Source of the DNA: an uncultured virus (IMG/VR IMGVR_UViG_3300040807_003058)
Taxonomy: Duplodnaviria; Heunggongvirae; Uroviricota; Caudoviricetes
Reading direction: 5' to 3' (one strand)
Length of the DNA stretch: 64,000 nucleotides
IMG/VR virus record: IMGVR_UViG_3300040807_003058
In this document: piece by piece, positions 24,710-58,784 of the stretch
Numbering within the stretch: position 1 is the first letter of the stretch
Layout: every line of letters starts with the position of its first letter
Made by a program: the position numbers and the translations under genes
Notes under the pieces: model-generated
The model's input: only the letters and a program-made list of their open reading frames with translations
Database searches by the model: none
Told to the model about the DNA's origin: nothing

Positions 24710-25000
24710 GTGAGTACAGCGGTTTGGGTCGTTCTGGTAGTATCGATCGTACTGGCTGCGGGCGGTGCCTGGGTTATCTCCCGTAATCGAGCTCGTCGAG
24801 AGCTCGCCAAGTACGAGCTGCGGGACCGTACGGACCTCGAACAGGAACGTACGGAAGAGGAACAGCAGGCAGAGGAAGTGGTGCAGGAAGTCATTGACCG
24901 CGCAGAATCCGTGCTCGAGGGGATCAACACCCGTCACGATCAACGCGTAGTGGACCTGAAGAACGTCGACTCGTTCGACAAGTTCCAGTTCCGGAGGTAG
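24710..25000 (+). CDS. N-terminal TM coiled-coil protein (i-spanin-like)
   Basis: AVWVVLVVSIVLAAGGAWVI then a charged coiled coil. Confidence 0.5.
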   Translation: MSTAVWVVLVVSIVLAAGGAWVISRNRARRELAKYELRDRTDLEQERTEEEQQAEEVVQEVIDRAESVLEGINTRHDQRVVDLKNVDSFDKFQFRR

Positions 25001-41021: not shown

Positions 41022-41022
41022 A

Positions 41023-41823: not shown

Positions 41824-41933
41824 ACCTCTCTGGGTTATGGGGGCCGCATCTTCTTATGTCCAATCTTGACCTACGAAGGTGCCGTACCATACGGTTCTCA
41901 CGGCACTTGCATCAGCGACGAAGCGGAGCAGAG

Positions 41934-43136: not shown

Positions 43137-43151
43137 TGAAGGAGGTACGCA

Positions 43152-44078
43152 GTGACTACCACACCAACACAGGTACGGTCTGACGTCTTCGGGGCCGCGG
43201 CGGAAGCCGTAGGTCCTTCGGAGCTACAGGGTTTCGTGCGCATCCTGGCTGACCCCGTCGATGCCATCGATCGGTTTCGGCAGGCGTATGACGAAGAGGA
43301 TCCGGAAACCGGAGTAGCCCCGGCGGCGGAGATCGTTACCGACGCAGAGGCACTCCCGAAGGATGGGCCGGAGTCGTACTCCCTGCCCGCTTGGGAGAAC
43401 AAGCAGCGTATGTGGGGCCGTATGCCCTGCGAAGCCATGTACTACGCGTTGTCGCAGGCCCTCGGGCCGCAGTGGTGGGAAGAGGAGAACGAAGTCATCT
43501 TCGAGACCATCCACCGAGCTGGGTTCCGTCTAGGGCCGCAGGGGTTCACCCGGACCATGGCGCTGAAGGCGCTGATGTCCGCTCCGCAAGGGGAGAGCCT
43601 CTTCCACCGCAACTGGAAGGTCTTCCTGTTCCTCGCTACAGCCCTGTCGGGACGGCCGGGCAAGTGGGGGGACGTAGACCTACCCACCCCGCTCGAGGTG
43701 TACCTGGCAATGAAGGTCGCCGCCGAGTTCCGGCCCGAGGCGTACTCCGACGAGGTCCTATCGGCCATCGCCGCATCCTGCCTCGAGGACGGTCTGTGGG
43801 TGTACCCCGGCGTAATGGGAATGGCACAGGCGCACGCCCTGGGACAGCTCCGGTACTACGACATCCCTGTTACGGTGGATGACGTGGAGAAAGTACAGGT
43901 GTTGGTGGCAAAGCATCTCTCCGGCGATGACCAGCTACCAGACGAGCCCGAGGGCTACCTCACCGCACAGGCGTTGTTGGTGCTTGACCTCGTCCGTAGT
44001 ATCGAGTTCCTGGACGAGGCGGGCGACTCCGCCGTGCAGGATGTCCACGACGTAATCTCCGGAATGAGCGATGGCTGA
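43152..44078 (+). CDS. hypothetical protein (head module)
   Basis: AAGGAGGT RBS; 308 aa. Confidence 0.65.
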   Translation: MTTTPTQVRSDVFGAAAEAVGPSELQGFVRILADPVDAIDRFRQAYDEEDPETGVAPAAEIVTDAEALPKDGPESYSLPAWENKQRMWGRMPCEAMYYALSQALGPQWWEEENEVIFETIHRAGFRLGPQGFTRTMALKALMSAPQGESLFHRNWKVFLFLATALSGRPGKWGDVDLPTPLEVYLAMKVAAEFRPEAYSDEVLSAIAASCLEDGLWVYPGVMGMAQAHALGQLRYYDIPVTVDDVEKVQVLVAKHLSGDDQLPDEPEGYLTAQALLVLDLVRSIEFLDEAGDSAVQDVHDVISGMSDG

Positions 44079-46215
44079 TCTGCCCCAACCACCAGAGATT
44101 CGTAAGCCGCCGTCCCCGTCTACGCAGAGAGGGCGCAGCGTCGCGGATACTCCGGAAGACGCATACTCACAGTCTTCTGCCTCCCGGGGAGGGGACACGA
44201 GTCTGAAGACTCCGAACCCCTATCTGGATCTGTCGAACCTGACGCTTCCGACGGAACCACAGGAGATCTACGAATACTGCCGGTACCTCGCCGGAGCGTC
44301 CGCCATCCACAAGGCGTACGTCACGCAGATGTCGACCATCCCCGTGACGGACATCCGCATCAAGCCCCGGGTGGAGGTGTCGGAAGATGTTCGAGGCGCG
44401 CAGCAGGAAGCTACTCGAGGCTCGGGAAGCGATTACGTAGAGGACCCGAGGACCCGTCAGTTCGCGAACTTCGTAACGAACAAGCTGCGTCTGCGTAGGT
44501 TCAACCAGCGGGCGAGCCTGTACCTACACACCTACGACGCTGCGGTCATCACGCTGAACTTCCCGTTCACGAAGATGTTCCGCTGCAAGTCCTGCGGTCA
44601 CTCCTTCCCCGGACAAGAGTCGGAGTACTCCCGGGAGACCGGCCAGAGCGTGGGGTTCCGTGCGAAGTGCCCGAGCTGCGGGCATGTCGGCCGGGTCGAG
44701 GTCAGCGACAAGTACGACTACAACGCGCTGGAGGAGATCACGCTGCAGGTGCTCGACACCGAGCAGATCCACTCTCTGCGGAACGACTTCACCGGAAAGG
44801 TGGAGCTCTATTACGAGATCCCGGAAGACATCAAAGACCGGCTGCGGGACTCAGACGTAAACCCGGACTTCCTGTTCTCCTACCCGCAGGAGTACCTCCA
44901 CGCAGCCGTAGGGACTGGCGGAGCGTACTACCACCTCGACGGAGACCGGCCGGTACTACGGCTTATTCCCGGGTCGTATTACCTCCTGACGAGCCCGCAC
45001 ATGCCTGTGGGCTCTAACGGCCTGCCCATCCCGCAGATGCTGGCCACGTTCAAGGACACGTGGCTTCTGCGGAAGCTCATGCGTGCGTCGGAGGCGGTGG
45101 CGAATCAGCACATCGTGCCGCTGGAGATCCTGTTCCCCGATGCGACCGGCACCAAGGGCGGGCTGTTCCAGACGCTAAACGTGTCGAGGTACATGCCGCT
45201 GCTACACGAGCTCGTGTCCAAGCACGCGAAGGACCCCAATATCCGGGGTGTCCTGCCGTTCCCCGTTGGCCGCATGGTTCTCGGTGGAGAGGGTAAGGCC
45301 CTACTGCTCTCGCAGGAGATTCGCGTCCTGGCGGAGAACATCATGGCAGGACTGGGGGCTCCGCTGGAGTTCCTCTTCGGAGGGCTCAGCTACTCCGGCA
45401 GCTCGGTGTCCATCAAGCAGCTGGAGAAGAAGTTCGAGGACCTTCGCATCGAGCTCCGCACGATGAACCAGTGGGTAGTAGACCGAATCACCGAGCGTGC
45501 CGGGTACCCCGGGTATGAGGTCAGCTTTGCCGACCTCCGCATCGGTGATGACCTGCCGTTCCAGCAGATGCTGGGGTCCATGGTGCAGGCCAGCCAGCTC
45601 TCTCTGGAGACTTTGCACGATGAGATGGGCATCAACACCGTCTCCGAGCGTAACCGCATCGACCGAGACATGAAGTTCCAGAACCAGCTCCGTGCCGACC
45701 AGGCCAAGGTCGACATCGAGTCTCAGGAGCGCTCTCAGATCGCGCAGGCTAACGCGGAGGCTACGGCGGCCATCAGCGCAGCTCGCGCCAACCTCGATGC
45801 GCGTGTGGAGGCCGCCCAGCAGATTCGGGATGACTCCGACCTCCTGCAGTCCGTCCTGTCGTCACCAGACCTGGCAGCACAGCTGCTGGGGTCGAACGCC
45901 CCGGAACTGGCTACGGGACAGGGGCCGGAAAACCTGCCGGTCACGCCCAACCCAGAGTCCGTGTACTCCTCGCCGGAGGATACGGCTGCCGCCATCGAGA
46001 CGCAGGCACCTACAGAAGAAACGGTGGCTGACCTGGTAAGGGCCATGGGACGCATTGACCCGACGGACTGGCCACATGCACAGTCTATCCTGGCCGAGCA
46101 GTACGGCAGCGACATCGCGAACGCCGTCAACGCCAGGCTCATGGCCGCAAAGGCCGGCGCGGGGCAAATGCCTACCGAGCAGCCGGGCGTGCGCGACGCC
46201 AGCATCGACTACTAG
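44071..46215 (+). CDS. probable portal protein with zinc-ribbon insertion
   Basis: portal-like GLPIPQML...LRKLMRA, AENIMAGLGAPLEFLFG...YSGSSVS, LSLETLHDEMG; CKSC/CPSC insertion; acidic C-terminal tail. Confidence 0.6.
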   Translation: MADLPQPPEIRKPPSPSTQRGRSVADTPEDAYSQSSASRGGDTSLKTPNPYLDLSNLTLPTEPQEIYEYCRYLAGASAIHKAYVTQMSTIPVTDIRIKPRVEVSEDVRGAQQEATRGSGSDYVEDPRTRQFANFVTNKLRLRRFNQRASLYLHTYDAAVITLNFPFTKMFRCKSCGHSFPGQESEYSRETGQSVGFRAKCPSCGHVGRVEVSDKYDYNALEEITLQVLDTEQIHSLRNDFTGKVELYYEIPEDIKDRLRDSDVNPDFLFSYPQEYLHAAVGTGGAYYHLDGDRPVLRLIPGSYYLLTSPHMPVGSNGLPIPQMLATFKDTWLLRKLMRASEAVANQHIVPLEILFPDATGTKGGLFQTLNVSRYMPLLHELVSKHAKDPNIRGVLPFPVGRMVLGGEGKALLLSQEIRVLAENIMAGLGAPLEFLFGGLSYSGSSVSIKQLEKKFEDLRIELRTMNQWVVDRITERAGYPGYEVSFADLRIGDDLPFQQMLGSMVQASQLSLETLHDEMGINTVSERNRIDRDMKFQNQLRADQAKVDIESQERSQIAQANAEATAAISAARANLDARVEAAQQIRDDSDLLQSVLSSPDLAAQLLGSNAPELATGQGPENLPVTPNPESVYSSPEDTAAAIETQAPTEETVADLVRAMGRIDPTDWPHAQSILAEQYGSDIANAVNARLMAAKAGAGQMPTEQPGVRDASIDY

Positions 46216-46224
46216 GAGTAGGAC

Positions 46225-49200
46225 ATGGCCGACATCAGCCCGCAGGAGAGAGCCCGCCGGGAGCTTATCCGCAACCTCCCCCCTGCGGACGAGATGGCGG
46301 AAGACGTTCTCAACCGTACCGTGGCCGCACTCGAGAAGAACTTCGAGGCACCCATCGGTGACGACAACTACCGGTTGGAGCTCATCGGCGGCCTGGAGCA
46401 CTCCGGCGTACCTGACCCCAAGGACTGGGACGCGCTGTACAAGCACATGACAAAGGGCCGTACGTACGGCGCCAAGGTCTACGGCACCTTCCGCATCACC
46501 GACCAGCGTACGGGGGAGGTCGTCAAGGAAGAGCGTCGCCTGGTATCGGTTGTTCCGACACCGGTACACGACCGATCGTTCATCGTGGGCGGCAAGAAGC
46601 GCTTCCTCATGCACCAGTGGCGTCGTAAGCCGGGTGTGTTCAGTCGCTGGGACGAGAAGGGCGACATCACCAACGAGTACAACCTCGACCCATCGACCTC
46701 AGGGTCCATCCGCAGCTTCAAGGTCGTGTACGACCGCGGAATGGAGGGGCAGGACCCCTCGTTCAAGGTGCACTACAAGAGCTCCAAGTCGGTGGATGCA
46801 TGGGCGCTGGCCAAACTGTTGGGCGCCTCGGACAAGGACCTGCGCAAGGCCGTGGGCAAGGAAGTGGCCGACGGCATCATCTCCTCTATGGATGACGAGA
46901 AGTACGAGAAGAACATCCGCAGCTTCCACCAGAAGGTGTTCGGCAACAAGAAGGACGCGAAGGAGCTTGACCTCAACCTGCTCGAGGCGCAGCTGAAGGA
47001 CGAATTCAACCGCACGTCGGTCGACCCGGACGTCATGAAGATGTCGCTCGGGAAGGCGGAAGACCGCATCACGCAGAGCACGATCGTCAGTGGGTTCGGC
47101 AGGTTGGTAGACATCGCCAACGGCGGTCCGCAGGATGACCGCGAATCGTTGGTCGTGAAGAACATCCTGTCCCCGGCTGACCTCGTCGCAGAGGCCGTGG
47201 GCCGTAAGTCCACGGTGGACAAGTACCGGTCGAAGGTACGCCGGAAGATCATGGGCCTGCAGAGCGACCAGGAGCCCAAGCTGGACCTTCTGCTCGGCAC
47301 AGATCTACGTGGAAACATCACCAAGAGGATCACTACGTCCGACGTCATGCGGTCGGACCACGCTACGACCCCCCTAGATTCGTTTGCGCAGGCAACCTCC
47401 ACCACAATCATGGGTGAGGGCGCCATTGGTAGCGAGCAGGCCATCCCGACGGAGGCCAAGCTGCTGAACAGCGGCAGCTTCGGGTTCCTGGACCCGTCGC
47501 ACACCCCGGAGAGCTCGCGGGCGGGCGTTGTTCTGCACCTTCCCGTGCGGGCGAAGATCGTACAGTCGCAGGATCCCCGCAGGGACAAGGACCTCCCAGT
47601 CAGCAAGGTAGTCAGCGAGTTCGTGCGGCCGAACGGCAAGAAGGTGGACCTCTCCCCGGCAGATGTGTCCGGCAAGGCCATAGGCATGGCTGATCAGTAC
47701 GAGCTGACTTCCTCCGGGAAGATCAAGGCCACGCCCAACGACGCGGGGTTCGTAAAGGCCCTACGGGATGGTGAGGTGGTGCTGGTGAAGCCGAGGGAGG
47801 TCGACTACTGGGTGCAGGATGCCGCCCAGATGTTCGACGTGAACTCCTCGCTGATCCCATTCGCCAATTCCATCCAGGGCGGCCGAGTAGGCTACTCCGA
47901 CAAGCAGACACAGCAGTCTCTCCCGCTGAAGTACCGGGAGACTCCGCTGGTGCAGGTGAAGGCTCCCGGGACAGACTACAGCTACGAGCAGCTGCTGGGA
48001 GAGGAAGCCGGCGCGGTCCACGCCCCCTTTGATGGGGAAGTCGTAGCGATCGACGAGGGCGACAACTCCCGTACGATCAAGGTCCGGAAGAAGGGCGGCA
48101 AGAAGGTCGAGGAGATCAAGCTCCCGAAGAACATCCCGCTGGGTGGGGGCGTCCCTCTCGATGCCAGCCCTACAGTGGCTGTAGGCGATAAGTTCAAGGC
48201 CGGGGACGTACTCGCAGACTCGGTGTACACCAAGGACGGCACGCTCTCGATGGGCGTAAATCTGCGGACGGTGTACCTCCCGCACTACTCCGCGACGTTC
48301 GAAGACTCGATCCTCATGTCGGAAAGTGCTGCACGGAAGATGACCTCCGAGCACATGTACGAGGAGGAACTGGACTCGCAGGCGGTGAAGCCCAGCAAGG
48401 CCAACTACCTGCAGTACTCCCCCACACCCATCTCCAAGGAAGACTCTGCCCTGCTGACGGACGAAGGCGTCATCAAGGTAGGTTCTCGCGTGAAGCCCGG
48501 CCAGCTGCTGCTGGTGGGTACGAAGACGGAGCACGTCGACCAGGAGTCGGCGGCGAAGGCCGCGGCAGAGATCGGCTTCTACCAGAGCAACAACAAGCGG
48601 AAGGTACGGCGCGGCACACGCTTCTACGAGAAGCGGTGGAAGCACGACTCCGAGGGGGTCGTCACCGGAGTGGAGAAGACCAGAAACGGATACAAGATCT
48701 TCGTGAAGACCGAAGAGCCGCTGGAGGTAGGAGACAAGATCTTCGGACGGCACGGCAACAAGGGTGTTGTCGGTACGATCCTGCCGGATGAGATGATGCC
48801 GACGGACACCGACGGTAAGCCGGCGGAGCTCGTGCTGAACCCGCTGGGCGTTCCCGGTCGCATCAACCCCAGCCAGAACTTTGAGACGTTCGTCGGCAAG
48901 GTAGCGGAGAAGCTCGGCCGTCCGGAGATCCTCGACAACTGGAAGAAGGAGTCCAACTGGGACTTCGTGAAGAACAAGCTGCAACAGTACAGCATTCCCG
49001 ATGGGGAGGACTTCACCGACCCGACAACCGGCCGGAAGCTCAAGGGCATTTCCGCCGGCACGCAGTACGTGCTCAAGGCGAAGCAGCAGGTCGAGCACAA
49101 GTCTTCTGCTCGAGGTATCGGTGGGTTCCAGACCTCGGGCCTGGCCTCCAAGGGAGAGGACGGCGCGCAGAGCCTGGGCGAGCTCGGGTTCTACGGCCTA

Positions 49201-52200
49201 CTGGCTCAGGATGCTCGAGAGTTTCTACGGGACGCGCAGCTCAACAAGTCGGAGAACCGCCCGGAGATCTGGTCGGCGCTGTCGAACGGCCGTGCTCTTC
49301 CCGGGGCAAAGGTTCCACAGGCGTTCGAGCGGTTCCAGGCGTACATGCGGGGCGCCGGCATCGAAGTGGAGCGTGACTCCAAGCGAGGGGTATTCAAGCT
49401 CCTACCGATCACCGACGACAAGGTGCGGGAGATCGCCCGGACTTCCGGCAAGGACAACGTCATCACCAAGCCCTGGGAGACCATCCGGGCGAAGAACGAC
49501 AAGCCGATCCCTGGGGGCCTGTTCGATCCCGATGCAGTGCGCGGGTTGAGTGGGTCGAAGTGGGCGCGGTTCGAGCTCGATCACCCCGTACCCAACCCGG
49601 TGTACGAGAAGAGCATCCGAGAGATCCTCGGCATCAAGCCCAAGGAGTACGAGGGGCTGATGTCCGGCACGCAGTCAGTGGCGACCGCCGACGGAGAGCT
49701 CTACGGCCACCAGGCCATCAAGCACATGCTGGATAACGTCGACCTCGATGTGGCGTACGAGAAGGCGAAGAAGGCCGCAGCCACGTCGAAGGAGGCTTCT
49801 GATCGTAGTCGCGGCTACCGTGTGATGAAGTCCATCGACATGCTTCGCGGCAACGACATGTCCCCCGCCGATGCCTTCATGCGCCGGCAGGTACTGGTGC
49901 TACCGGCGAACATCCGCGGGCTTCGCCGAGATCAGAATAGCGGGGACTGGGTCATCGGTGACCTGAACTACCTCTACCGCGACCTCGGGATGATCAACCG
50001 GGAGTTGGTCAAGGCCCGGGAAATCGGGCAGCCTCCGAAGGTCATCGCGCAGCTCGAGGCTGGTCTGTACGAGGGCATGAAGTCCCTGATGCAGTCCGAG
50101 GGGTCTGTGCCTCTCAGCGGTACCGGGTACCAGGGTGTACTCGGTACGCTGGCTGGCCGGCGACCGGACCCCAGCGGCAAGGACGCCACCAACGTCAAGG
50201 AGTCTTTGTTCAAGAAGACGTTGCTTCAGCGCCGGCAGATCATGTCCGGCCGTACGGTCCTGGCACCGGATAGCGACATCGACATGGACGAGGTTATTCT
50301 TCCGCGGAAGATGGCTGTGGCGATCATGGAGCCGCTGATCGAGGCGGAGTGGAACCGACGAAACCCCCCGAGCTCGGGCGGTACACGCAGGAACAACAAG
50401 CTGCGATCCTTCCGAGAGAGACTGGAGTCGTACAAGCTGGAGAACAAGAGGGACCAGGAAGTAGACCGCATCCTGGAGAACGTCATTCGCGACCGGTGGG
50501 TGGCCGTAAAGCGCGACCCCGTGCTGCACAAGTACGGCGTTCAGGGGTTCAAGCCGGTGCTGCGCGATACCAAGACAGTGGGCCTGCACCCCGTGGTGTA
50601 CGGGGGCCTGAATGCAGATAACGACGGCGATACGCTGGCCATCTTCGCCCCTATTTCGAAAAAGGCCAGCAACGAGCTCCGGGATAAGCTCCGTCCGACC
50701 AAGAATCTGTTCAACCCTGCATCGGGCCAACTCGAGTACACAGTCTCTCACGAGGCCATCCTCGGTATCTCCCGCGCTACGAAGTCCCAGGGCAAGGACA
50801 CCGGGAAGTCCTTCAACTCCCTGCAGGCTGCTACCAACGCGTACAACGATAACCAGTTCGATGTGAACGACGTCATCGACGTCAACGGCCGCAAGGTCTC
50901 CTACGGCCTGCACCTGCTCGACGAAGCCCTGCCTGACGGCCACAAGATGGAGGACCTCGTACAGAAGGGTGTCCTACCTGCTATGACCGACCCAGCCGGG
51001 CTGACGAAGAAGCAGATCAACGGCGTACTGACGCACATTGCGAAGGAGGCTCCTCAGTCGTTCTCGTCCACCGCCGCCGGGTTCCGGGAGGTGGGGCAGA
51101 ACGTCGCAACGACTTCCGGAGCCACGCTGCTGCTGGATGACCTCAAGCCGGTGCTGGTGGACGAACGCCGGCGGGTGGAGAACGAGCTCTACCGCGAGCT
51201 AGGTAAGGTCAAGGGGATCGTGGACTCCGGCGAACGGCAGGAGCGGACCCGACAGATCTTCAAGGACAAGCTCATCGGCATCACCGACAAGGCGATGACG
51301 GAGCTACGCAAGACCATGACCGACAAGCGTCCGAACATGACGGCTGAGCTCACGTTCACCGGAGCTCGGGTCAAGCCCGGACAGCTGCAGCAGGTGCTGT
51401 TCGCCCCCGGGGCTTTGACCGACGCGAAGGACCAGGTCGTTGAGTCGCCGGTCATGCAGAGCTACACCGAGGGTCTGGACATGGCCAACTACTGGGCGTC
51501 GATGCACGGCGCTCGGATGGGCACTGTGTCGAAGGTCGTGCAGGTTCAGGAGCCTGGATACCTCACAAAGCAGCTGGTCAACACCTCGATGGACCAGTCG
51601 ATCACCGAGGTTGACTGCGGTACTACCCGAGGGGTTGAGGTCGATCTGTCCGCCAGTACGGACGATCTCTACGGTCGTGTACTCGCCGCTCCAGTGAAGG
51701 TAGCAGGGATGAACCTCTCCCCTGGGGAGAGCCTGACGCCGCAGATCGTGTCGGAGATCAACAGGAAGACGTCCGCCAAGAACCCCAAGGTGCGTGTGCG
51801 CTCTCCGCTGTACTGCGAGGCGAAGGAAGGCATCTGCCAGGTGTGCGCCGGCCGCACACCTACCGGGGAGTTCCACGCCAAGGGCACCAACTTCGGCATC
51901 ATCGCCGCACAGTCGGTGGGCGAGCGGTCCACGCAGCTGATGCTTTCGCTGTTCCACGGAGGCGGTGTCTACGACCCGAAGGCGGACACCGAAGGAAAGA
52001 CCTCCGTCAAGGACATGTACCACCAGGCATCGGCGTTGATGCGCATGCCGCGTACGATGGGAGGCAAGGCCGCTGTGGTTGCCCCGGTATCCGGGAAGAT
52101 CGAGAAGGTAGAGACGGACACTCGACGGGGCGGGTACAACCTGCAGCTCGAGGGTGCCAAGTCAGTGTTCCTGCCGGCCGAGAGACGTGCACCGAACGGC

Positions 52201-52737
52201 AAGAAGTTTCGGGACTTCTACAAGCCGGGGGACAGCATCAAGGCCGGCGACGTACTCACGGACGGCATCGCCAACCCGAAGGCCATCCTTGAGACGACGG
52301 GCGACATGGACAAGGCCCGGGAGTACCTCGTCAACCGAATGAACTCCCTGTACTCCGGTACTGGCGTGCTTCGGCGGAACATCGAGGCTTTGGTTCGCGG
52401 TGTGTCCAACACCGTGGAGGTGGTGGGGTCTGGAAAGACCGACTACCTCCCCGGACAGCGCATCTCGCTGCAGGAGGCAGAGGCTGCGAAGAAGGAAGAC
52501 CCCTCCTTCCGGTTCACGAACATCCTCAAGGGGGTGGACGTCGCTCCGCGAGAGGTTCGAGAGGACTTCATGGCCCGGCTCAACTACAACAACCTCAGGC
52601 GCACCATCATTGACTCTGCGGCCGTTGGCGCCGAGTCTAGGTACCATGGAACCCACCCCATCCCGGCGCTGGCGTACGCCGCTGAATTCAACCGGGACGG
52701 ACGTTACGGTGCGGTGAGGTCGGACGGCAGGTACTGA
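46225..52737 (+). CDS. single-chain fused beta-beta' DNA-directed RNA polymerase
   Basis: beta motifs HTPES, SLIPF, FEDSIL, GDKIFGRHGNKG, LNPLGVPGRIN, GAQSLGE, then in the same frame beta' motifs GGLFD, DLNYLY, SGRTV, RDPVLH, NADNDGD, HGARMG, GYLTK, AAQSVGE, LFHGGG; AGGAG RBS. Confidence 0.95.
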   Translation: MADISPQERARRELIRNLPPADEMAEDVLNRTVAALEKNFEAPIGDDNYRLELIGGLEHSGVPDPKDWDALYKHMTKGRTYGAKVYGTFRITDQRTGEVVKEERRLVSVVPTPVHDRSFIVGGKKRFLMHQWRRKPGVFSRWDEKGDITNEYNLDPSTSGSIRSFKVVYDRGMEGQDPSFKVHYKSSKSVDAWALAKLLGASDKDLRKAVGKEVADGIISSMDDEKYEKNIRSFHQKVFGNKKDAKELDLNLLEAQLKDEFNRTSVDPDVMKMSLGKAEDRITQSTIVSGFGRLVDIANGGPQDDRESLVVKNILSPADLVAEAVGRKSTVDKYRSKVRRKIMGLQSDQEPKLDLLLGTDLRGNITKRITTSDVMRSDHATTPLDSFAQATSTTIMGEGAIGSEQAIPTEAKLLNSGSFGFLDPSHTPESSRAGVVLHLPVRAKIVQSQDPRRDKDLPVSKVVSEFVRPNGKKVDLSPADVSGKAIGMADQYELTSSGKIKATPNDAGFVKALRDGEVVLVKPREVDYWVQDAAQMFDVNSSLIPFANSIQGGRVGYSDKQTQQSLPLKYRETPLVQVKAPGTDYSYEQLLGEEAGAVHAPFDGEVVAIDEGDNSRTIKVRKKGGKKVEEIKLPKNIPLGGGVPLDASPTVAVGDKFKAGDVLADSVYTKDGTLSMGVNLRTVYLPHYSATFEDSILMSESAARKMTSEHMYEEELDSQAVKPSKANYLQYSPTPISKEDSALLTDEGVIKVGSRVKPGQLLLVGTKTEHVDQESAAKAAAEIGFYQSNNKRKVRRGTRFYEKRWKHDSEGVVTGVEKTRNGYKIFVKTEEPLEVGDKIFGRHGNKGVVGTILPDEMMPTDTDGKPAELVLNPLGVPGRINPSQNFETFVGKVAEKLGRPEILDNWKKESNWDFVKNKLQQYSIPDGEDFTDPTTGRKLKGISAGTQYVLKAKQQVEHKSSARGIGGFQTSGLASKGEDGAQSLGELGFYGLLAQDAREFLRDAQLNKSENRPEIWSALSNGRALPGAKVPQAFERFQAYMRGAGIEVERDSKRGVFKLLPITDDKVREIARTSGKDNVITKPWETIRAKNDKPIPGGLFDPDAVRGLSGSKWARFELDHPVPNPVYEKSIREILGIKPKEYEGLMSGTQSVATADGELYGHQAIKHMLDNVDLDVAYEKAKKAAATSKEASDRSRGYRVMKSIDMLRGNDMSPADAFMRRQVLVLPANIRGLRRDQNSGDWVIGDLNYLYRDLGMINRELVKAREIGQPPKVIAQLEAGLYEGMKSLMQSEGSVPLSGTGYQGVLGTLAGRRPDPSGKDATNVKESLFKKTLLQRRQIMSGRTVLAPDSDIDMDEVILPRKMAVAIMEPLIEAEWNRRNPPSSGGTRRNNKLRSFRERLESYKLENKRDQEVDRILENVIRDRWVAVKRDPVLHKYGVQGFKPVLRDTKTVGLHPVVYGGLNADNDGDTLAIFAPISKKASNELRDKLRPTKNLFNPASGQLEYTVSHEAILGISRATKSQGKDTGKSFNSLQAATNAYNDNQFDVNDVIDVNGRKVSYGLHLLDEALPDGHKMEDLVQKGVLPAMTDPAGLTKKQINGVLTHIAKEAPQSFSSTAAGFREVGQNVATTSGATLLLDDLKPVLVDERRRVENELYRELGKVKGIVDSGERQERTRQIFKDKLIGITDKAMTELRKTMTDKRPNMTAELTFTGARVKPGQLQQVLFAPGALTDAKDQVVESPVMQSYTEGLDMANYWASMHGARMGTVSKVVQVQEPGYLTKQLVNTSMDQSITEVDCGTTRGVEVDLSASTDDLYGRVLAAPVKVAGMNLSPGESLTPQIVSEINRKTSAKNPKVRVRSPLYCEAKEGICQVCAGRTPTGEFHAKGTNFGIIAAQSVGERSTQLMLSLFHGGGVYDPKADTEGKTSVKDMYHQASALMRMPRTMGGKAAVVAPVSGKIEKVETDTRRGGYNLQLEGAKSVFLPAERRAPNGKKFRDFYKPGDSIKAGDVLTDGIANPKAILETTGDMDKAREYLVNRMNSLYSGTGVLRRNIEALVRGVSNTVEVVGSGKTDYLPGQRISLQEAEAAKKEDPSFRFTNILKGVDVAPREVREDFMARLNYNNLRRTIIDSAAVGAESRYHGTHPIPALAYAAEFNRDGRYGAVRSDGRY

Positions 52738-54443
52738 TGCAGCCACCAGAGACAGTATCGGGAGTGTCGCTGGACACGGGATTTGTCGTTGACGTCAACA
52801 CCGCTGACCGGCTGTACGACGTGCAGCTCGAGCGCAGCAACAGGGTGTTGGAGGACATCCCGCGGCTGGAGTCGGCGGTCTCCATCGGAGGTGGGGGGTA
52901 CTCCGGCTCCTACCTGAAGAAGCGGACGAAGGTGGTCGTGGCCCGCCCACGCGGCAGCAGCACGTGGGTCATCCTCGGGGCTCTGGCTGTCCCCACCCCG
53001 GACTACGTGGACCCGGAGGACCCTACACAAGGGGAACTCGGGGCTCGATCGGACCACAAAGCCGGCCGTAATGGGGACGAGCCCGGCGACCACGTCATGC
53101 AGAACGACCTCGGCGGCCACATGGCCGTCAGGAACAACGGCGTGCTGGAGGTGTACGCCAATGAGTTCCTTTGGTCGCGGTACTTCCCGAATGAACGCGC
53201 CATCCGGCAGTTCTGCCAGAGCTACCAGACCGCTGGGTTCTTCGGCCTGTCGGAGTTCTTCACCTCCCGGGAGGAGAACACCGACGCGTCCGGCCAAACC
53301 CCTACCGGGTACCGGGCTCGTATCAAGTCCCGCACTGCCTCAGCCCCGCACGTATGGATGGACGCCGGCACAGTGCGGGGGGAAGAGGAAGTCCGTCTTC
53401 CCGGACTACCGAAGAGGTCGGAGAAGGGCGTAAGCAACCTCTGCTTCCGGTTCCTGGTGTTCGACCAGGAGATGGTCGATCGGTACTCCGCTGCTGGCGA
53501 GGGCCCACCGCCCCCCGGCGCAGCCCGGATGGCTCTTCGGGCTGACGAGGAAGGCAACGTGCTGTGGGCTTCTGCCGGCACAATGACCTTCACCGCCGGG
53601 GAGACGGTAATCAACAGCCGCACCCGGCTGCGGATGACCGCCGGCTCCGGGCTGGACATCCTCAGCCGAGGGACAACCTCACTGAAGTCCAGGGCAACAA
53701 TGACGCTAGCGTCTGACAAGGCGATGGCGCTCGTAAGCGGGGGTGACGTCGTCGTACGGTGCCGTCGGTTCCGGGTACAGGCGGACAACGACGAGTATGA
53801 GGTACAGGGCCCGTGGAAGGTGCGTGCCGGCGGGGTGATGGAGCTACACACCTCGGCCCACATGAGCGTCCGCGCGGGTGGCGACAAGACCGTCAGTACT
53901 GCCGGCAGCAACCATGAGGTAGTTGGTGGGCGTAAGGGACTGATTGTTCTCGGCAATTCCGCCCCCGAAAACATCGGCCGTGACTTCTCCGCCTACAGGA
54001 TGGTGGTGAAGAACGGTGCTTACCGACAGACTGTAGAGCGTGGCTCTATCGAGCTCCGAGTTGGCCCGGAACAGGCGCCGCTGGCGACGGTGATAGTCCA
54101 CAACGATGTGACGAAGCCGACGGAGATCGGGCGTATTGAGCTCCGGCACAACATCTCCGGGGCGAAGGTGCTCATCTCCTCCGACGGCAGCTTCGAGATC
54201 GGGGGACGGGCAGGCGGAATCCACGGAGATGCCGCAGGGAACGTGCAGCTCGGCCGCACCGCGGGAGTTCCTGGGTACATCGTTACCTCTGCCTCCCACC
54301 AGGACTACGTTACGGGACTGCCCCTACGCGGGGTTCCTGGTGCCGTGGTGAACCAGACGGCTGCAGGAGTTCCTGGGCCGGGGGTGCCGGTGGTGCCGCC
54401 GGTACCGACGCTGCCGGAAGTCCCCATACCGGACGCCGACTGA
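52737..54443 (+). CDS. baseplate hub/spike protein (Gp5/VgrG-like)
   Basis: N-terminal OB-fold-like GFVVDVN...VVVA...VILG, then short Gly-punctuated beta repeats (AGGDKTVSTAGSNHEVVGG). Confidence 0.65.
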   Translation: MQPPETVSGVSLDTGFVVDVNTADRLYDVQLERSNRVLEDIPRLESAVSIGGGGYSGSYLKKRTKVVVARPRGSSTWVILGALAVPTPDYVDPEDPTQGELGARSDHKAGRNGDEPGDHVMQNDLGGHMAVRNNGVLEVYANEFLWSRYFPNERAIRQFCQSYQTAGFFGLSEFFTSREENTDASGQTPTGYRARIKSRTASAPHVWMDAGTVRGEEEVRLPGLPKRSEKGVSNLCFRFLVFDQEMVDRYSAAGEGPPPPGAARMALRADEEGNVLWASAGTMTFTAGETVINSRTRLRMTAGSGLDILSRGTTSLKSRATMTLASDKAMALVSGGDVVVRCRRFRVQADNDEYEVQGPWKVRAGGVMELHTSAHMSVRAGGDKTVSTAGSNHEVVGGRKGLIVLGNSAPENIGRDFSAYRMVVKNGAYRQTVERGSIELRVGPEQAPLATVIVHNDVTKPTEIGRIELRHNISGAKVLISSDGSFEIGGRAGGIHGDAAGNVQLGRTAGVPGYIVTSASHQDYVTGLPLRGVPGAVVNQTAAGVPGPGVPVVPPVPTLPEVPIPDAD

Positions 54444-55150
54444 TGCCACTGCCGTCACCAGCAGCGCTAACGTCGTCCATCACGACCTCCCTGGTTGCTC
54501 GGGGAGTCGGCGGGGTCGTTGTTCCGGGTGGATACAACCCCTGGCTGCTGATGGTGCAGCACGCGGTGGAGGCTTTGCAGGGTAAGATCACTGCGGCTTT
54601 TCAGGCTGGGGTGTGGTACCCCGGGACGACTACCTCCCCTCCTACACCTTCCGTACTAACGACTACCCCGGGCGTGTTCCAGCCTGCGGTGGAGACGATC
54701 GCCATGACCGTGGCCCGGGGTGCTTCCTCTGGGGCCCCTTCTGCGAGAGCGCGGTCCTACGCGGCGGAGGCGGGCCTGAACGGTCCGTACGGGGCTGCGC
54801 TGCCAGAGGCCGTAGGAGAGGGGTGTATACGGGCCTGGGGAGTTGCCGGCATGCTTGTACCCGTAGATGGGGTGTTCGCCACCGCGGCTACCGCCGCCCC
54901 GGCAAGTACTCCCGTAAGTGTGATCTTCCCTCCGACCTGGTCGCCCGACGCGGCGGCTATCGTGTCCGCACGGTGGAACAGCGACCCCCGGCTGTATAGC
55001 CCCAACCCAGCGGGCAGGGCGTCTACGGCAATGATGCTGTCGAAGGTCGTGCTAGACAGTATTACCTGGCTGCGGCCTACTGTACTTGTGGGCACGGTAG
55101 GAGGTACTGTCGTCCCCGCCACCGTGTCCCCCGGTACATCCATTGTCTGA
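54443..55150 (+). CDS. putative structural protein downstream of the spike
   Basis: Ala/Gly/Thr/Pro-rich, TGATG coupling. Confidence 0.55.
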   Translation: MPLPSPAALTSSITTSLVARGVGGVVVPGGYNPWLLMVQHAVEALQGKITAAFQAGVWYPGTTTSPPTPSVLTTTPGVFQPAVETIAMTVARGASSGAPSARARSYAAEAGLNGPYGAALPEAVGEGCIRAWGVAGMLVPVDGVFATAATAAPASTPVSVIFPPTWSPDAAAIVSARWNSDPRLYSPNPAGRASTAMMLSKVVLDSITWLRPTVLVGTVGGTVVPATVSPGTSIV

Positions 55151-58100
55151 CCTCGAGTGGACATATACGCGAGTAGGGAACCTGACCTGGTTGAACCAGG
55201 TGGTCGACGTACTCGATGCGGTGGCCCCTGTAATGCGGGCGGAGCAGGCGCTGAACGACGCGCTGAGTACGGTTGCGCGGGTACAGAGCATCATCGAGCA
55301 GGCGTTTGCGGCAGCCTCTGCCCGCCGAGTGCTCGCGCTCGGTGCCGGCCTGGCGCTGGAAGAGTTCATCCAGGACTACCTCACCGACAACGGCTATCTT
55401 CTCACCTACAGCAACCTCGGCCGGCTCATCGACCGCCTGGGGGTGGGTACGTTCCTCGAGGGAATGCAGGACTCCGTCAACGGCAAGGAATACGACAGGT
55501 TCGCCAGAGTACCCGGACTCCGGGCAGAGCTCCTACAGAGGGACAGCCGGGGACCGTTCCAAGACCTCGGGTTCACCTACCAGCAGAAGGCTCGCCGGGC
55601 CGTCTACCAGGTAGATGACCTATTCCAGCGGACAGAGTTCACTGACTTCGAGGACTTCCTCATCCCGTTCCTGGAAGCGTTCTACGATGATGGCGACCAA
55701 CAACGTCCCGTGTGGAACGAGCCGGTGGATCGCGTTGGGGGAGTAATCCTCACGGTAGAGGGCGTGGACCCGGCGGAGGTCATCGAACGGTTCGACCTAC
55801 TCGCCAGGCTCATCAGCCACGCCAGTAACGGCATTACGAACATCCTGCGCGACGTCGACTTCTCCGTCCTGCGGGATGTGCCGACCAAGGCTTGGGCAGG
55901 GTTCCTCGACGCGCTACCTGATGGAGCCAAGAACGACGGTGGGTTCGCAACGACGTCAGCGCTGCAGATCGACGCGCTGGACCCCCGGGTGCGTGGATTC
56001 GGGCAGAACTACTCGGCTGCCCCGGACTTCCAGCGCCTGGGCACGGCCGACCTCATCCCCGCCCTGGGGAACCTCCTGCAGGAATCCAATCTTGTCGCCG
56101 AGTTTCTCGGCCTGCAGCTACCTTCCCGGGTGGCCCTGGATGGCCTGGCCACCGCCCTGGCTGAGCGAATTCAGCGGATCCTTGATGCGATTCGAGCCAT
56201 CCAGGATTTCGCCCGTCTTCTGCGGGATGCACTGGCGCTCAGCGGGGTGGCGAAGCTCCACATTCCGTTGGAGATTCGCAGTAGGGACGAGCTCGTTCAG
56301 GAAATCTATCGGGCCACCCCGTCGCGCAATGACCTAGTCCGGGTAACTCGGAACCCCAACGATCAGCTACGGGAAGACTTCGCAGATTACCCGTCCTGGG
56401 CGCAGGTGATGCAGGTGGGGGACCTCACCAGCACGCAGCATGCTCTGGGGATTTCCAGGACAGACCCTGACTTCGCCTTCGAGGCCGCCGGCAACCTGAT
56501 GGTCATGGGTCTCGGCATCTTCTACACCGAGGGACCGCTGGCGAGACTCCTCAACGGCATCTTCAGCGACACAGGGGACACCGAGCTCCTGCCGTTCGTG
56601 AACCTCGATCTCGACGATGTCGGCTCTATCTCCCCGTCGGTACTAAGAGAGTCCATCCTTCCTGGTATCGACCTTCCCCCGGGAGCAATAGGGTCGCTGG
56701 TGGACGTAGGGTCGGACGGAGTACCCGGGGTCACCGACCCCGTGTCGGAAGGCGGGTCCCCCGGGACAGACGTGTACGTCGTGCGCGAAGTCCCCGCCCC
56801 GGCCAGCGGGCCCGTGGGCACGGGAGTGAAGTCGGTCGCTACCGGGACTCCTGTGCGCGCAGCTTACCCGTCGGACGACAACCCTGCTGTGCTGCACCCC
56901 GCCTCGGCCGCGCTCATCACCTCAAACGGGGCGATCACGGCCATGCAGGAGAGCGACGGCGGGTATGGCGGCGGTACTGGCGGCGTACCAAATACCACCG
57001 AGGAGTGGGCGCCGCTAGCTCAGCTGGAGTTGGGGTACGATTCCGGATTTGCGCACGAACCGGGGGTGCACCTCGTTGATTTCGACATTCGCCCCGGTGG
57101 GACCGTTCTGCACAGCTCGACGATTACTGCACTGTACTCCGGCACCTTCGGCGGTCGAGTAGCTCGCTCATCCGTCACTGTGGCGTACGGCGACAGCTAC
57201 GTAGTTGCTGAGATCGTCAGCTCCCTCGGTGGAGATGAGTGGGCGATTTACCCGGCCATCCCGGAGGACGCGGCGACTACGGGGCTCCTGGCTGCGGGGG
57301 TGATGCCCCGCGTGCAGAACAGGTGCACCCACACCTCCGCCACGACCTCCGAAGAGGTGCTGACGTTCGAGACGCAGGTAGGCCTACTGCGGTCTACCGT
57401 GGTGACTGACCCAGACGGGGCGGTAGTAGGGGGAAGCTCGTCGGACGTATCCCGAGCAGTGCTGAATGTGCAGAGCGAGGGCCACGTGCACGCCGCAGCA
57501 GATTCCGAGTACGGGCAATACTACCGCTGCGCATTTACCGCTGGGTACGGGGATACTCTTCTCTCCGCTCCGCTGGTGGCCATCTCCTCCGGAGGAGTGG
57601 TCTGTGCTCCGGCTACGTACCCCCCAACCGCCTACAAGAACGCCGTCGACCTGGTGCCGGCGTCGATCGGCAGGCCGGCCTCGGGGGCGCCGCGGAACTC
57701 CGTGAGCAGGAAGGCCGCGTTCCTGGGAGCAGGGGCCACATACTACTGTATGGCCGAGGTGGTAACGTCCTCCGACACACTAGGGGCCTGTCGTCAATTC
57801 CCTGGCACACGCCTACTGACGGCATGGGCCGGCCGAGTGGTCCGCATTGGTATCGGCACGACTGCCGACACCAATGCTAGGGTATGGGCGGCGCAGGCGG
57901 AGGTGGTCGATGTAGAGGTGTTGTCTGGGGGATCCTGGGTGCCTCTTGGGGCCGCGGCCGTGAATTACGGGACCTACGGGCCTGGAGGGTGGCCGGTAGA
58001 AGCCACCGCAGGTACGAAAGCGACATACCCCGCAGCAGCCCTAAGGCTGGTTCTGTTTCCCAGCGACCACCTGGCCACTACCTGGCCAGTAGCGCCCACA

Positions 58101-58781
58101 AACACTCTGCTGGGCCACGCCTGGTACGAAGGCGACATCTGCGTGGTACCTCCAGGCACGTACGTACACGCTCGAGGAGGGGCTATGCCTCCTGGGAGCG
58201 TAGGCGGGCCCGGTAACGGTGTGTCCAACACCGGCGGGTGGGGTTTCGTCCGATCGGTGGACCTACCGCCGCAGGTAACGGCTGCCGGTAAGCGAACGCT
58301 GGCGCTGGAGTTCAGGGTGATGGCGGATGTGTCCGACGTTGTCGGCACGTACCTGCTGCTGACCACTCGGTACCACCGAATCCGCTATACCGCCGACACG
58401 GGGCAGTGGGCGCTGGACATCCGCTCCCCCGATACCTGGCAGTGGTCGCTGGACGTGGTAACGAACACGCTGCCTGTCTCTGCGGATGGTCGACACCGGA
58501 TGACGATCACTCGAGACCCCGCGGTCGGTACCCTCGGCCTGAAAATGGAGACGTTCTCCGTAGGCTGGTCTACCGATTGGGATTCTTCTGTTTCTGTGGC
58601 GTCCGTATCGCCGCAACTGGTAGGTTGGCAGCCGAGGAACCGTCCCGTCCGTCTGGGCAACCGTCCTCGACAACTGTCCCAGTTGACCTCAGCCATTGGC
58701 AACTTCCTGGAAGACAGCAACGGCATTCGCTATGGGTCGATGCCTCTAGCGATTCTCAGCGTGGACCACAGCTACGAGTAA
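55143..58781 (+). CDS. large putative virion protein
   Basis: 1212 aa; helical N-terminal half and beta-rich C-terminal half; TTG start overlapping the upstream stop. Confidence 0.6.
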   Translation: MSDLEWTYTRVGNLTWLNQVVDVLDAVAPVMRAEQALNDALSTVARVQSIIEQAFAAASARRVLALGAGLALEEFIQDYLTDNGYLLTYSNLGRLIDRLGVGTFLEGMQDSVNGKEYDRFARVPGLRAELLQRDSRGPFQDLGFTYQQKARRAVYQVDDLFQRTEFTDFEDFLIPFLEAFYDDGDQQRPVWNEPVDRVGGVILTVEGVDPAEVIERFDLLARLISHASNGITNILRDVDFSVLRDVPTKAWAGFLDALPDGAKNDGGFATTSALQIDALDPRVRGFGQNYSAAPDFQRLGTADLIPALGNLLQESNLVAEFLGLQLPSRVALDGLATALAERIQRILDAIRAIQDFARLLRDALALSGVAKLHIPLEIRSRDELVQEIYRATPSRNDLVRVTRNPNDQLREDFADYPSWAQVMQVGDLTSTQHALGISRTDPDFAFEAAGNLMVMGLGIFYTEGPLARLLNGIFSDTGDTELLPFVNLDLDDVGSISPSVLRESILPGIDLPPGAIGSLVDVGSDGVPGVTDPVSEGGSPGTDVYVVREVPAPASGPVGTGVKSVATGTPVRAAYPSDDNPAVLHPASAALITSNGAITAMQESDGGYGGGTGGVPNTTEEWAPLAQLELGYDSGFAHEPGVHLVDFDIRPGGTVLHSSTITALYSGTFGGRVARSSVTVAYGDSYVVAEIVSSLGGDEWAIYPAIPEDAATTGLLAAGVMPRVQNRCTHTSATTSEEVLTFETQVGLLRSTVVTDPDGAVVGGSSSDVSRAVLNVQSEGHVHAAADSEYGQYYRCAFTAGYGDTLLSAPLVAISSGGVVCAPATYPPTAYKNAVDLVPASIGRPASGAPRNSVSRKAAFLGAGATYYCMAEVVTSSDTLGACRQFPGTRLLTAWAGRVVRIGIGTTADTNARVWAAQAEVVDVEVLSGGSWVPLGAAAVNYGTYGPGGWPVEATAGTKATYPAAALRLVLFPSDHLATTWPVAPTNTLLGHAWYEGDICVVPPGTYVHARGGAMPPGSVGGPGNGVSNTGGWGFVRSVDLPPQVTAAGKRTLALEFRVMADVSDVVGTYLLLTTRYHRIRYTADTGQWALDIRSPDTWQWSLDVVTNTLPVSADGRHRMTITRDPAVGTLGLKMETFSVGWSTDWDSSVSVASVSPQLVGWQPRNRPVRLGNRPRQLSQLTSAIGNFLEDSNGIRYGSMPLAILSVDHSYE

Positions 58782-58784
58782 GGC

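Follow-up and report, generated by a model that had tools for sequence, protein, structure and literature searches.

An uninterrupted single-chain beta-beta' RNA polymerase encoded between the portal and spike genes of an uncultured tailed phage

In bacterial RNA polymerase (RNAP), an alpha dimer is needed for the assembly of beta and beta', and in Helicobacter and Wolbachia these two subunits are made as one polypeptide, beta followed by beta', through an rpoB-rpoC fusion. The virion RNAP of phage N4 is a giant single-chain polymerase that the capsid carries and that is injected to perform early transcription; it is a T7-like single-subunit enzyme, and its fold is unrelated to that of the two-barrel RNAPs. 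Phage-encoded two-barrel RNAPs are found in phiKZ and AR9, which lack alpha, omega and sigma homologues and of which one RNAP set is packaged and injected, according to the available text of two reports (PMC7824862, PMC13282480). The crAss-like virion RNAP (phi14:2 gp66) is described as a large packaged single protein with a two-barrel active site (bioRxiv 10.1101/2020.03.07.982082). The RNAP-encoding Caudovirales (mReC) were reported from tailed-phage metagenome contigs (Weinheimer and Aylward, 2020; PMC7481178): their beta and beta' are recognisable by cellular HMMs, branch outside cellular clades, and are encoded by genes ringed by phage hallmark genes. In the main text of that paper, beta and beta' are handled as two subunits and concatenated, “fused” and “fusion” refer to crAss phage only, and virion association, zinc-ribbon loss and portal linkage are not discussed.

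Cultured phages with a related enzyme are Salmonella phage Arash (Gp206 + Gp216; OQ632216) and the Vibrio phages D69, D148 and D181. The Arash paper, in its available text, simply names the two pieces beta and beta' subunits (PMC10585845). By virion mass spectrometry, Gp206 (128 peptides) ranked first among all proteins with 3516 spectra, compared to 1210 spectra for Gp216, 1333 for the major capsid protein, 877 for the portal and 467 for the sigma-like Gp10 (PMC10585845). One of the two sigma-like proteins of Arash was found in virions; the preparation was broad, with 116 of 252 proteins listed as virion, including ribonucleotide reductases and RNA ligases, and the authors caution that carry-over of abundant enzymes may occur (PMC10585845).

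Here, we describe an RNAP of this kind from an uncultured virus. The window, i.e., the whole 64-kb stretch of DNA that was analysed, is only part of the phage genome, which runs on beyond it. The features discussed below are the following (all on the + strand):

44071..46215, +: portal protein, 714 aa, with a conserved four-Cys insertion (BLASTP, tblastn, AF2 + Foldseek)
46225..52737, +: single-chain beta-beta' RNAP, 2170 aa (ATG start, stop-free frame, Pfam and PDB searches)
46225..49389, +: beta module, aa 1-1055, complete and co-linear with bacterial beta
48730-48765, + (aa 836-847): GDKIFGRHGNKG, lysine motif of beta
aa 871-881, +: LNPLGVPGRIN, beta motif
aa 980-986, +: GAQSLGE, beta motif
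aa 1030-1034, +: VPQAF, beta motif
49357..49407, + (aa 1045-1061): GIEVERDSKRGVFKLLP, junction stretch, in which GIEVERDSKR runs directly into GVFKLLP with no added linker (MAFFT against cellular beta' N-termini)
49390..52737, +: beta' module, aa 1056-2170, keeping the clamp-helix region, NADNDGD, bridge helix, trigger loop and second zinc site
50611-50631, + (aa 1463-1469): NADNDGD, beta' motif
aa 1761-1766 and aa 1778-1782, +: HGARMG and GYLTK, bridge helix
aa 1894-1900 and aa 1909-1911, +: AAQSVGE and LFH, trigger loop
52737..54443, +: central spike or baseplate hub-like protein, 568 aa (Atlas, homologue domains, AF2 + Foldseek)
54443..62119, +: four closely abutting ORFs of 235, 1212, 737 and 374 aa (ORF coordinates)

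A sequence-only reading of this DNA had claimed one uninterrupted 2170-aa ORF that carries RpoB and then RpoC motifs in order, and both points hold: the frame 46225..52737 (+) opens with an ATG and is stop-free throughout, and each quoted motif lies where it had been placed. The HMM search proposed at the time recovered cellular-profile Pfam domains in beta-then-beta' order, namely Rpb2_3, Rpb2_6 (5.7e-42), Rpb1_2 (1e-18) and Rpb1_5 (4.8e-23, aa 1750-2071). In PDB sequence searches, C. difficile beta' 170-1129 matches residues 1160-2140 (5.9e-81) and bacterial beta matches at 8.5e-61; cyanobacterial beta 35-1056 aligns to residues 39-1048 in a single stretch, and Thermus beta 47-1100 aligns to the beta module in three stretches. 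Identity to cellular subunits is 25-28%. The two-lysine GDKxxxRHGNKG-type motif of the beta double-psi barrel is present as GDKIFGRHGNKG, with G836, D837, K838 and K846 invariant in 26 homologues. NADNDGD holds the three catalytic Asp of NADFDGD, and A1464, D1465, D1467, G1468 and D1469 are invariant in the same homologues, in which the F position is variable (F 10, N 9, S 4, V 3). Bridge helix, trigger loop and second zinc site are all present, the clamp-helix region, which is sigma-docking in bacteria, aligns with cellular beta', and the alignment with bacterial beta' reaches residue 2140. The ORF encodes a genuine RNAP whose beta and beta' are joined directly in a single chain.

The junction was also claimed earlier, and contigs of two runs bridge 49357-49407 without an indel: a contig of run X4, from another sample and another study, spans 46000-49626 with 0 differences and 0 gaps, and one of run X2, possibly the source sample, spans 47359-53000. 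These comparisons are of assembled contigs, over 46000-53000 in 4 runs, and no indel or joint is listed in any of them. Junction-flanking columns are conserved across 26 fused homologues. The zinc ribbon at the start of beta', with its four Cys between GLF and RMGHIEL, is absent through deletion of ~32 residues in 7/7 phage rows of a MAFFT alignment in which the four-Cys pattern is kept in 5/6 cellular rows. The whole RNAP has only four cysteines (C1798, C1864, C1871 and C1874), all invariant in the aligned homologues and all belonging to the second zinc site, which leaves none for the zinc ribbon. Judged from these alignments, the ribbon is the sole clear loss relative to minimal bacterial subunits. 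The description of the enzyme as “streamlined” is only modestly apt: the modules are otherwise co-linear with minimal bacterial subunits.

Comparison with the known systems separates this enzyme from most of them. The Helicobacter and Wolbachia fusions lie in a ribosomal-protein gene context and are longer, whereas the window RNAP is shorter and lies between portal and spike genes. The N4 virion RNAP is a functional analogue with an unrelated fold. The phiKZ/AR9 enzymes consist of 4-5 polypeptides and are far more diverged, the AR9 match being confined to the barrel region (7s00_C, E 9.7e-18, query 826-897). The crAss enzyme shows no cellular beta/beta' similarity by COG HMMs, as stated in the main text of PMC7481178, in contrast to the Rpb2_6 match obtained here. 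The nearest phage beta' outside the fused clade, and its sister in the tree, is that of Rhizobium phage RHph_TM30 (Kleczkowskaviridae), a stand-alone 1127-aa gene located beside replication genes and not beside a portal gene. The enzymes of Arash and of Vibrio D69, D148 and D181, on the other hand, share the direct beta-to-beta' joint, the missing zinc ribbon, a portal just upstream and the same beta'-tree clade. They are ~26-27% identical to the window RNAP, their genomes measure 180-187 kb, and a break within beta' (near query residues 1553/1574) divides their enzyme, whereas the window RNAP is uninterrupted; in D181, one further split has a homing endonuclease gene in its gap. Arash also has two sigma-like genes and an adjacent SNF2 helicase, neither of which was found in the window. 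Only portal, RNAP and DNA polymerase are detectably shared between Arash and the window phage.

In a beta' tree, 29 phage rows are set apart from 9 cellular (bacterial) rows with an SH-aLRT of 100; this was a quick LG+G4 search with few cellular rows, archaea and eukaryotes being absent. The phylogeny suggested in the sequence-only reading thus places the RNAP outside all 9 bacterial beta' sampled and inside a phage-only clade that includes Arash. Identity as a cellular rpoBC fusion is contradicted by this position, outside the bacterial beta' sampled, and by the phage-gene neighbours. With cellular-profile Pfam matches and a phage clade outside Bacteria, the RNAP belongs with the RNAP-encoding Caudovirales (PMC7481178), which bears out an earlier caution that the family may not be new: its lineage is that already known from 2020. 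The mReC-type T4-type major capsid (PF07068) and terminase (PF03237) were not found in the 64-kb window, a partial genome; in one relative (L003), a PF03237/GpA-type terminase lies 1.3 kb downstream of the RNAP.

The fused architecture is common to at least 44 of 120 listed metagenomic protein clusters. By tblastn, portal homologues lie upstream of the RNAP match in 6/13 loci (L001, L002, L003, L005, L011 and L013), which include Arash, Vibrio phage D69 and a 156-kb UViG. The tblastn rows of L005 and L013 are identical. The 10 kb preceding the RNAP of a 73-kb relative (L004 and its duplicates) yielded no portal homologue. The portal and RNAP homologue clusters have matching longest contigs of 37257, 65781, 76276 and 99249 bp, and the portal-protein cluster of the window phage includes a contig of up to 101.8 kb. 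No description of the uninterrupted single chain, the family-wide loss of the beta' zinc ribbon or the conserved portal-RNAP linkage was found in the literature searched.

The RNAP gene lies inside a virion-gene block on one strand, with the portal stop 9 nt upstream and the spike ORF overlapping by 1 nt. Both neighbours had been predicted earlier, and the evidence agrees. The portal matches Arash portal gp204 (BLASTP 1e-41), and the top PDB matches of its AF2 model (pLDDT 73) in Foldseek are all phage portals, the best being lambda 8xot_B (E 4.4e-8). The next ORF does start through the proposed TGATG overlap, at 52737, on the final base of the RNAP stop, and its Gp5-like, or gp5/VgrG-type, nature is indicated by the Atlas clusters Gp5_OB and Phage_base_V (0.94-0.96), by the domains of 40 homologues (Gp5_trimer_C in 16, Phage_base_V in 6, Gp5_C in 3), and by an AF2 model (pLDDT 79.5) whose best Foldseek matches are the PhiTE baseplate, the R2 pyocin spike, phi92 and P2 gpV (E 8.5e-5 to 1.7e-3). 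The four ORFs downstream have no Pfam or PHROG matches, the 1212-aa ORF giving a weak lectin-like lead (Atlas, 0.86); they are presumed virion or tail genes. The host virus is best explained as an uncultured tailed phage with a contractile-type baseplate, from estuary metagenomes. Other neighbours in the window encode a primase, a helicase and a family A DNA polymerase. Genes for sigma, an SNF2 helicase, a terminase or a capsid protein were not recognised in these 64 kb, so that the assignment to a virion module rests on two neighbours. As noted earlier, alpha, omega and sigma genes are not visible: Pfam gave no match to RNA_pol_A/L, omega or sigma region 2 in the RNAP and 59 other window ORFs, and a multi-HTH regulator (1019-1888) has weak sigma region 4-like HTH matches. 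Contigs matching the RNAP ORF occur in two metatranscriptome libraries (X5, 20/21 pieces at least 99% alike; X6, 10/10), where DNA carry-over is possible.

These observations suggest a mode of action that we regard as fairly likely, largely by analogy with Arash: an RNAP made with the virion genes would be carried in the head, delivered with the DNA, and transcribe phage genes without host RNAP. Beta and beta' would be translated as one polypeptide, the beta C-terminus running straight into the beta' N-terminus, with both catalytic double-psi beta-barrels, clamp, bridge helix and trigger loop in a single chain. Expression together with the portal and spike genes is most likely, because the gene sits in one same-strand portal-RNAP-spike block. 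Its presence within the virion is probable, since the distantly related Arash enzyme is abundant in virion proteomics; it would be loaded into the head, ejected into the host together with the phage DNA, and then transcribe phage genes independently of host RNAP. A specificity factor encoded by the phage is its probable partner, given that the sigma-docking clamp-helix region is kept and that relatives encode sigma-like proteins; with two sigma-like genes in Arash, and the product of one detected in virions, factor independence is improbable for the relatives. The enzyme may work without alpha or omega.

A less probable alternative is that the RNAP is not a virion protein but is produced once infection is under way, its promoter being recognised by host RNAP or another factor, and that it serves middle or late genes, with the portal adjacency reflecting gene order only. 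Packaging in the window phage is indeed argued by analogy, the set of proteins assigned to Arash virions is very large (116; PMC10585845), and phiKZ-type phages possess non-virion multisubunit RNAPs as well (PMC7824862); moreover, no second RNAP is visible in the window, and a single enzyme may therefore have to serve late transcription anyway. However, with a 9-nt gap on one side and a 1-nt overlap on the other, a separate promoter would have to lie within coding sequence, the Arash homologue tops the particle spectra (3516 versus 1333 for the major capsid protein; PMC10585845), and the portal-RNAP linkage recurs across very different genomes.

Somewhat less likely still is a hybrid enzyme, in which the fused chain is a catalytic core that recruits a host alpha dimer, omega and/or host sigma for assembly and promoter finding. 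The low identity to cellular subunits (25-28%), the absence of alpha from an Arash annotation that lists its own sigma-like genes, and the phiKZ/AR9 enzymes, which work without alpha, omega or sigma homologues (PMC13282480), speak indirectly against it, even though both modules align co-linearly with bacterial subunits along almost all of their length, the sigma-docking clamp-helix region aligns with cellular beta', and no phage alpha, omega or sigma was found among the 59 window ORFs; an ejected enzyme could depend on a host subunit, but this would be an extra dependency. An assembly or frameshift error that fused two genes, or a gene newly acquired from a cell or bacterial rpoB-rpoC on a misbinned contig, is highly improbable: several matching “phage” records are unannotated bacterial-like rpoB-rpoC stretches (Staphylococcus, Listeria, Salmonella), but here contigs of two runs cross the junction without an indel, the joint is kept in 26 aligned homologues, the beta' tree sets the RNAP apart from bacteria, the neighbours are portal, spike, family A DNA polymerase, primase and helicase, and GC is uniform (0.61-0.65).

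A broader and more tentative idea is that mid-sized tailed phages (contigs of ~70-115 kb) carry a self-sufficient single-polypeptide RNAP in the head that needs no alpha, omega or zinc ribbon, the covalent joint allowing threading through the tail and refolding without subunit assembly, and the phage needing no host RNAP for transcription from the first minute onwards. If true, no simpler natural enzyme would retain the complete bacterial beta/beta' architecture, and injected RNAPs would have arisen by a third independent route besides those of N4 and crAss/phiKZ. A single-chain bacterial-like RNAP would offer a compact model for the roles of alpha, omega and the zinc ribbon, as well as for the packaging and ejection of a 240-kDa enzyme and for phage escape from host transcription control and rifamycin-type inhibition. 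The deep-branching phage RNAP clade known from metagenomes since 2020 would thereby be tied to a concrete biology, a head-borne enzyme genetically linked to the portal, which is open to study in Arash and the Vibrio D69 group, relatives that are already in culture.

The polymerase gene occupies a single uninterrupted frame (46225–52737, plus strand), which encodes 2170 aa without a break, and every motif by which the sequence-only reading had recognized a β-β′ RNA polymerase (RNAP) is found in its place. A Pfam profile search returned Rpb2_3, Rpb2_6 (5.7e-42), Rpb1_2, and Rpb1_5, in the order β, then β′. The first ~1055 residues are co-linear with bacterial β: residues 47–1100 of Thermus β align in three stretches and residues 35–1056 of cyanobacterial β in one, while residues 170–1129 of C. 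difficile β′ align in one stretch with RNAP residues 1160–2140. In a MAFFT alignment of seven phage rows with six cellular β′ N-termini, the β C-terminus (VPQAFERF...GIEVERDSKR) runs straight into the β′ N-terminus (GVFKLLPITDD...) with zero linker. The β′ N-terminal zinc ribbon (~32 residues), with a four-cysteine pattern present in five of the six cellular rows, is deleted in all seven phage rows; the whole window RNAP contains only four cysteines, namely those of the conserved second zinc site. The clamp-helix region, which in bacteria is the docking site for sigma region 2, aligns with cellular β′. The catalytic motif reads NADNDGD; its three aspartates are invariant in 26 fused homologues, and its F position is variable (F in 10, N in 9, S in 4, V in 3). 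The description of the enzyme as streamlined holds modestly: the β′ module, at 1115 aa, falls below the length of all full-length bacterial β′ chains listed in a PDB sequence search (shortest listed, 1161 aa). The β module, at 1055 aa, likewise falls below the bacterial β chains listed in a second such search (shortest, 1100 aa) and is close to the 1070–1072-aa β chains there. The zinc ribbon is the one clear loss of a module.

The region aligning with rifampicin-binding cluster I of bacterial β (window RNAP residues 376–405) is strongly diverged across the family, and the window RNAP reads ...TTIMGEGAI... where bacterial β has ...RRISALGPGGL.... In the Thermus alignment, six rifampicin-contact positions (Q513, F514, D516, H526, R529, and S531 in E. 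coli numbering) all appear substituted. From these substitutions we infer that the enzyme would be naturally insensitive to rifampicin.

The fusion is intact in assembled contigs of two runs. Contigs from four sequencing runs were compared with 46000–53000, and no indel or joint was reported in any of them: one contig, from another sample and study, spans 46000–49626 with 0 differences and 0 gaps, and a second, possibly from the source sample, spans 47359–53000. Moreover, at least 44 fused β-β′ clusters occur among the 120 matches listed of 196, with proteins of 1988–2913 aa that carry both Pfam domain sets, the longer ones additionally bearing intein or homing-endonuclease domains. Among the matches listed, the closest fused homologues are 43–52% identical to the window RNAP and a second tier ~30%. 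In an alignment of 26 fused proteins, the positions flanking the joint vary hardly or not at all (G1045, P1061, T1063, D1064; further GLFD 1098–1101, W1113, and PNP 1123–1125). A search for shorter, split close relatives, which seeded on words from the first 500 residues, scored 8000 candidates and carries little weight, returned only four distant β or β′ matches (24–27% identity). When viral, metagenome, and genome contigs were scanned for the genomic context of the 43–52% relatives, only the ~27–31% tier, or nothing, came back.

Many of the fused homologues (P0004, P0006–P0008, and P0025–P0042) are 2450–2940 aa long and contain intein or LAGLIDADG/Hom_end domains; mobile elements seem to target the RNAP gene often. 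Two relatives (P0044 and P0045) have an inorganic pyrophosphatase (InPase, PF18823) domain inside the β module, between Rpb2_3 and Rpb2_6, and a 73-kb related phage locus encodes a separate InPase-domain ORF (18773–20587) 2.7 kb downstream of its RNAP. These arrangements would place a pyrophosphatase within a polymerase or beside one.

The best phage records by tblastn are Vibrio phages D69, D148, and D181 (~187 kb) and Salmonella phage Arash (181 kb), at 26–27% identity. Arash and D69 have the same direct β-β′ joint as the window RNAP, likewise without the zinc ribbon, but divide the enzyme elsewhere: a protein of 1525–1527 aa comprises β and the N-terminal half of β′, and a protein of 606–609 aa supplies the rest. 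D181 has one additional break, and at least this one looks secondary because a free-standing homing endonuclease gene occupies the gap. In Rhizobium phage TM30, the β′ gene is separate and lies away from any portal. A β′ tree was built from 38 rows (29 phage, 9 cellular) and 1053 columns (LG+G4, quick search, SH-aLRT); cellular sampling was thin, and the root was assumed. All phage rows group apart from all cellular ones (SH-aLRT 100), TM30 is sister to all β-β′-joined forms (98), Arash and D69 are nested among the joined forms, and the window RNAP falls into a 14-row subclade (100) adjoining cluster P0002 (99). Within the limits of its root and sampling, the tree speaks against a recent bacterial capture and is in line with the deep-branching clade of Weinheimer and Aylward (PMC7481178).

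The caution that the family itself may not be new was well placed, since the lineage is already known from that study. In its main text, “fused” and “fusion” are applied only to crAss phage, and β and β′ are concatenated as two subunits; the jumbo-phage RNAP reviews, in their accessible parts, describe split enzymes only (PMC7824862, PMC13282480). In the full-text literature searched, which takes in few subscription journals, we found no description of an uninterrupted bacterial-like β-β′ phage RNAP, of its zinc-ribbon loss, or of a portal-RNAP linkage. The feature is real and was correctly described from the sequence.

The window reads as phage DNA. Its GC content is uniform (0.61–0.65), several estuary metagenomes contain its DNA, and no tRNA genes were found in it. 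Two plus-strand blocks encode almost entirely unrecognized proteins, and replication functions are grouped on the opposite strand:

~26–41 kb, minus strand: replication block with family A DNA polymerase, DnaG-type primase, DnaB-like helicase, Cas4-like nuclease, resolvase, and ResIII helicase
29987–32503, minus strand: family A DNA polymerase, within the replication block

No isolate among the phages compared appears to be close: megablast of 40000–64000 against phages gave no match, all matches of the DNA polymerase are below 33% identity, and the genes that Arash has in common with the window are just those for portal, RNAP, and DNA polymerase. Genes for sigma, SNF2, terminase, or capsid were not recognized within the 64 kb, where tblastn with proteins of Arash and of a related 156-kb virus genome found nothing below E 0.5 for these functions. 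The ResIII helicase (39450–41021, minus strand) shows no clear orthology to the SNF2 helicase of these two phages (E 0.1). Its ORF overlaps a UDG-superfamily ORF (38449–40011, minus strand) by ~560 nt as listed, so that one start is probably mis-called; the Arash annotation likewise includes a long uracil-DNA-glycosylase-like gene. A 2.1-kb stretch (41022–43151) separates the replication block from the portal operon and has rival ORFs on both strands (499 aa, plus; 266 and 255 aa, minus), none of which has a family match.

A 289-aa protein (1019–1888) with repeated HTH units (Myb, GcrA, sigma-70 region 4-like) matches phrog_323, “transcriptional regulator, D5-like” (1.6e-42), and lacks sigma region 2; its domains make it a candidate phage transcription factor. 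A 677-aa protein (4507–6540, minus strand), which has a domain of the SASA/sialate O-acetylesterase-like type (1.2e-8), is possibly a tail enzyme that modifies the receptor. The small ORF closing the first plus-strand block (24710–25000) has PHROG matches to Rz-like spanin (1.5e-6), which points to a lysis cassette at this site and to a Gram-negative host. For a 1212-aa ORF, an Atlas search yielded a best score of 0.86, a lead only. By eye, the N-termini of the window's proteins show no obvious common cargo tag. In 41000–56000, 0 sigma-70-like promoters were found against 1.8 expected; a script detected no AT-rich islands, nor did any phage promoter motif emerge.

The gene order portal, RNAP, central spike was borne out. 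The portal ORF (44071–46215) ends 9 nt upstream of the RNAP start, and the spike ORF (52737–54443) begins on the last base of the RNAP stop codon. PDB sequence searches with either protein gave no match, and fold searches were therefore needed. The portal ORF matches the annotated Arash portal (BLASTP 1e-41), and for its AF2 model (29 homologues, pLDDT 73) the best Foldseek matches in the PDB are phage portals without exception: lambda leads (E 4.4e-8), followed by phage 812, N4, and T4. In 6 of 13 loci compared by tblastn, a portal homologue lies upstream of the RNAP. The protein cluster of the portal includes a contig of 101,836 bp. The portal contains a four-cysteine, zinc-ribbon-like insertion (residues 172–203, CKSCGH...CPSCGH), in which three cysteines (C172, C175, C203) never vary and the fourth (C200) hardly does across 29 homologues; cysteine pairs occur likewise at the aligned site of the Arash portal, and one homologue is auto-named DUF1610 Zn-ribbon protein. 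Homologues of the spike carry Gp5_trimer_C (16 of 40), Phage_base_V (6 of 40), or Gp5_C (3 of 40). The folds closest to its AF2 model (pLDDT 79.5) are those of membrane-piercing spikes and of baseplate hubs (PhiTE, R2 pyocin, phi92, P2 gpV, VgrG), and an Atlas search agrees with the assignment. The baseplate of this phage is probably of the contractile type.

The sequence-only reading had proposed that the polymerase is packaged and injected, an interpretation that is plausible and partly supported. In the study of Arash (PMC10585845), mass spectrometry of gradient-purified particles detected the large RNAP piece, Gp206, with the most spectra of any protein (3516; 128 unique peptides), together with the small piece, Gp216 (1210 spectra), the adjacent helicase, Gp217 (1148), the portal, Gp204 (877), and the sigma-like Gp10 (467). 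However, as many as 116 of the 252 Arash proteins count as virion proteins in that study, a very broad definition, and its authors concede that some carry-over is possible. Caution is also due because the window shares so few genes with Arash and because sigma, SNF2, terminase, and capsid genes went unrecognized in its 64 kb. By Pfam, Gp217 is an SNF2 helicase, and Gp10 and Gp196 contain sigma-70 region 2 or 3. The 156-kb virus genome has the order portal, RNAP, terminase, SNF2 helicase, the last (19512–20993) being orthologous to Arash gp217 (34% identity, E 3e-81). Contigs from two metatranscriptome libraries contain pieces of the window RNAP ORF, which is compatible with expression and no proof of it. 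By analogy with the Arash particles and the order in the 156-kb genome, and given the tight, operon-like spacing in the window, the best reading for this phage would be an RNAP that is carried in the head and injected.
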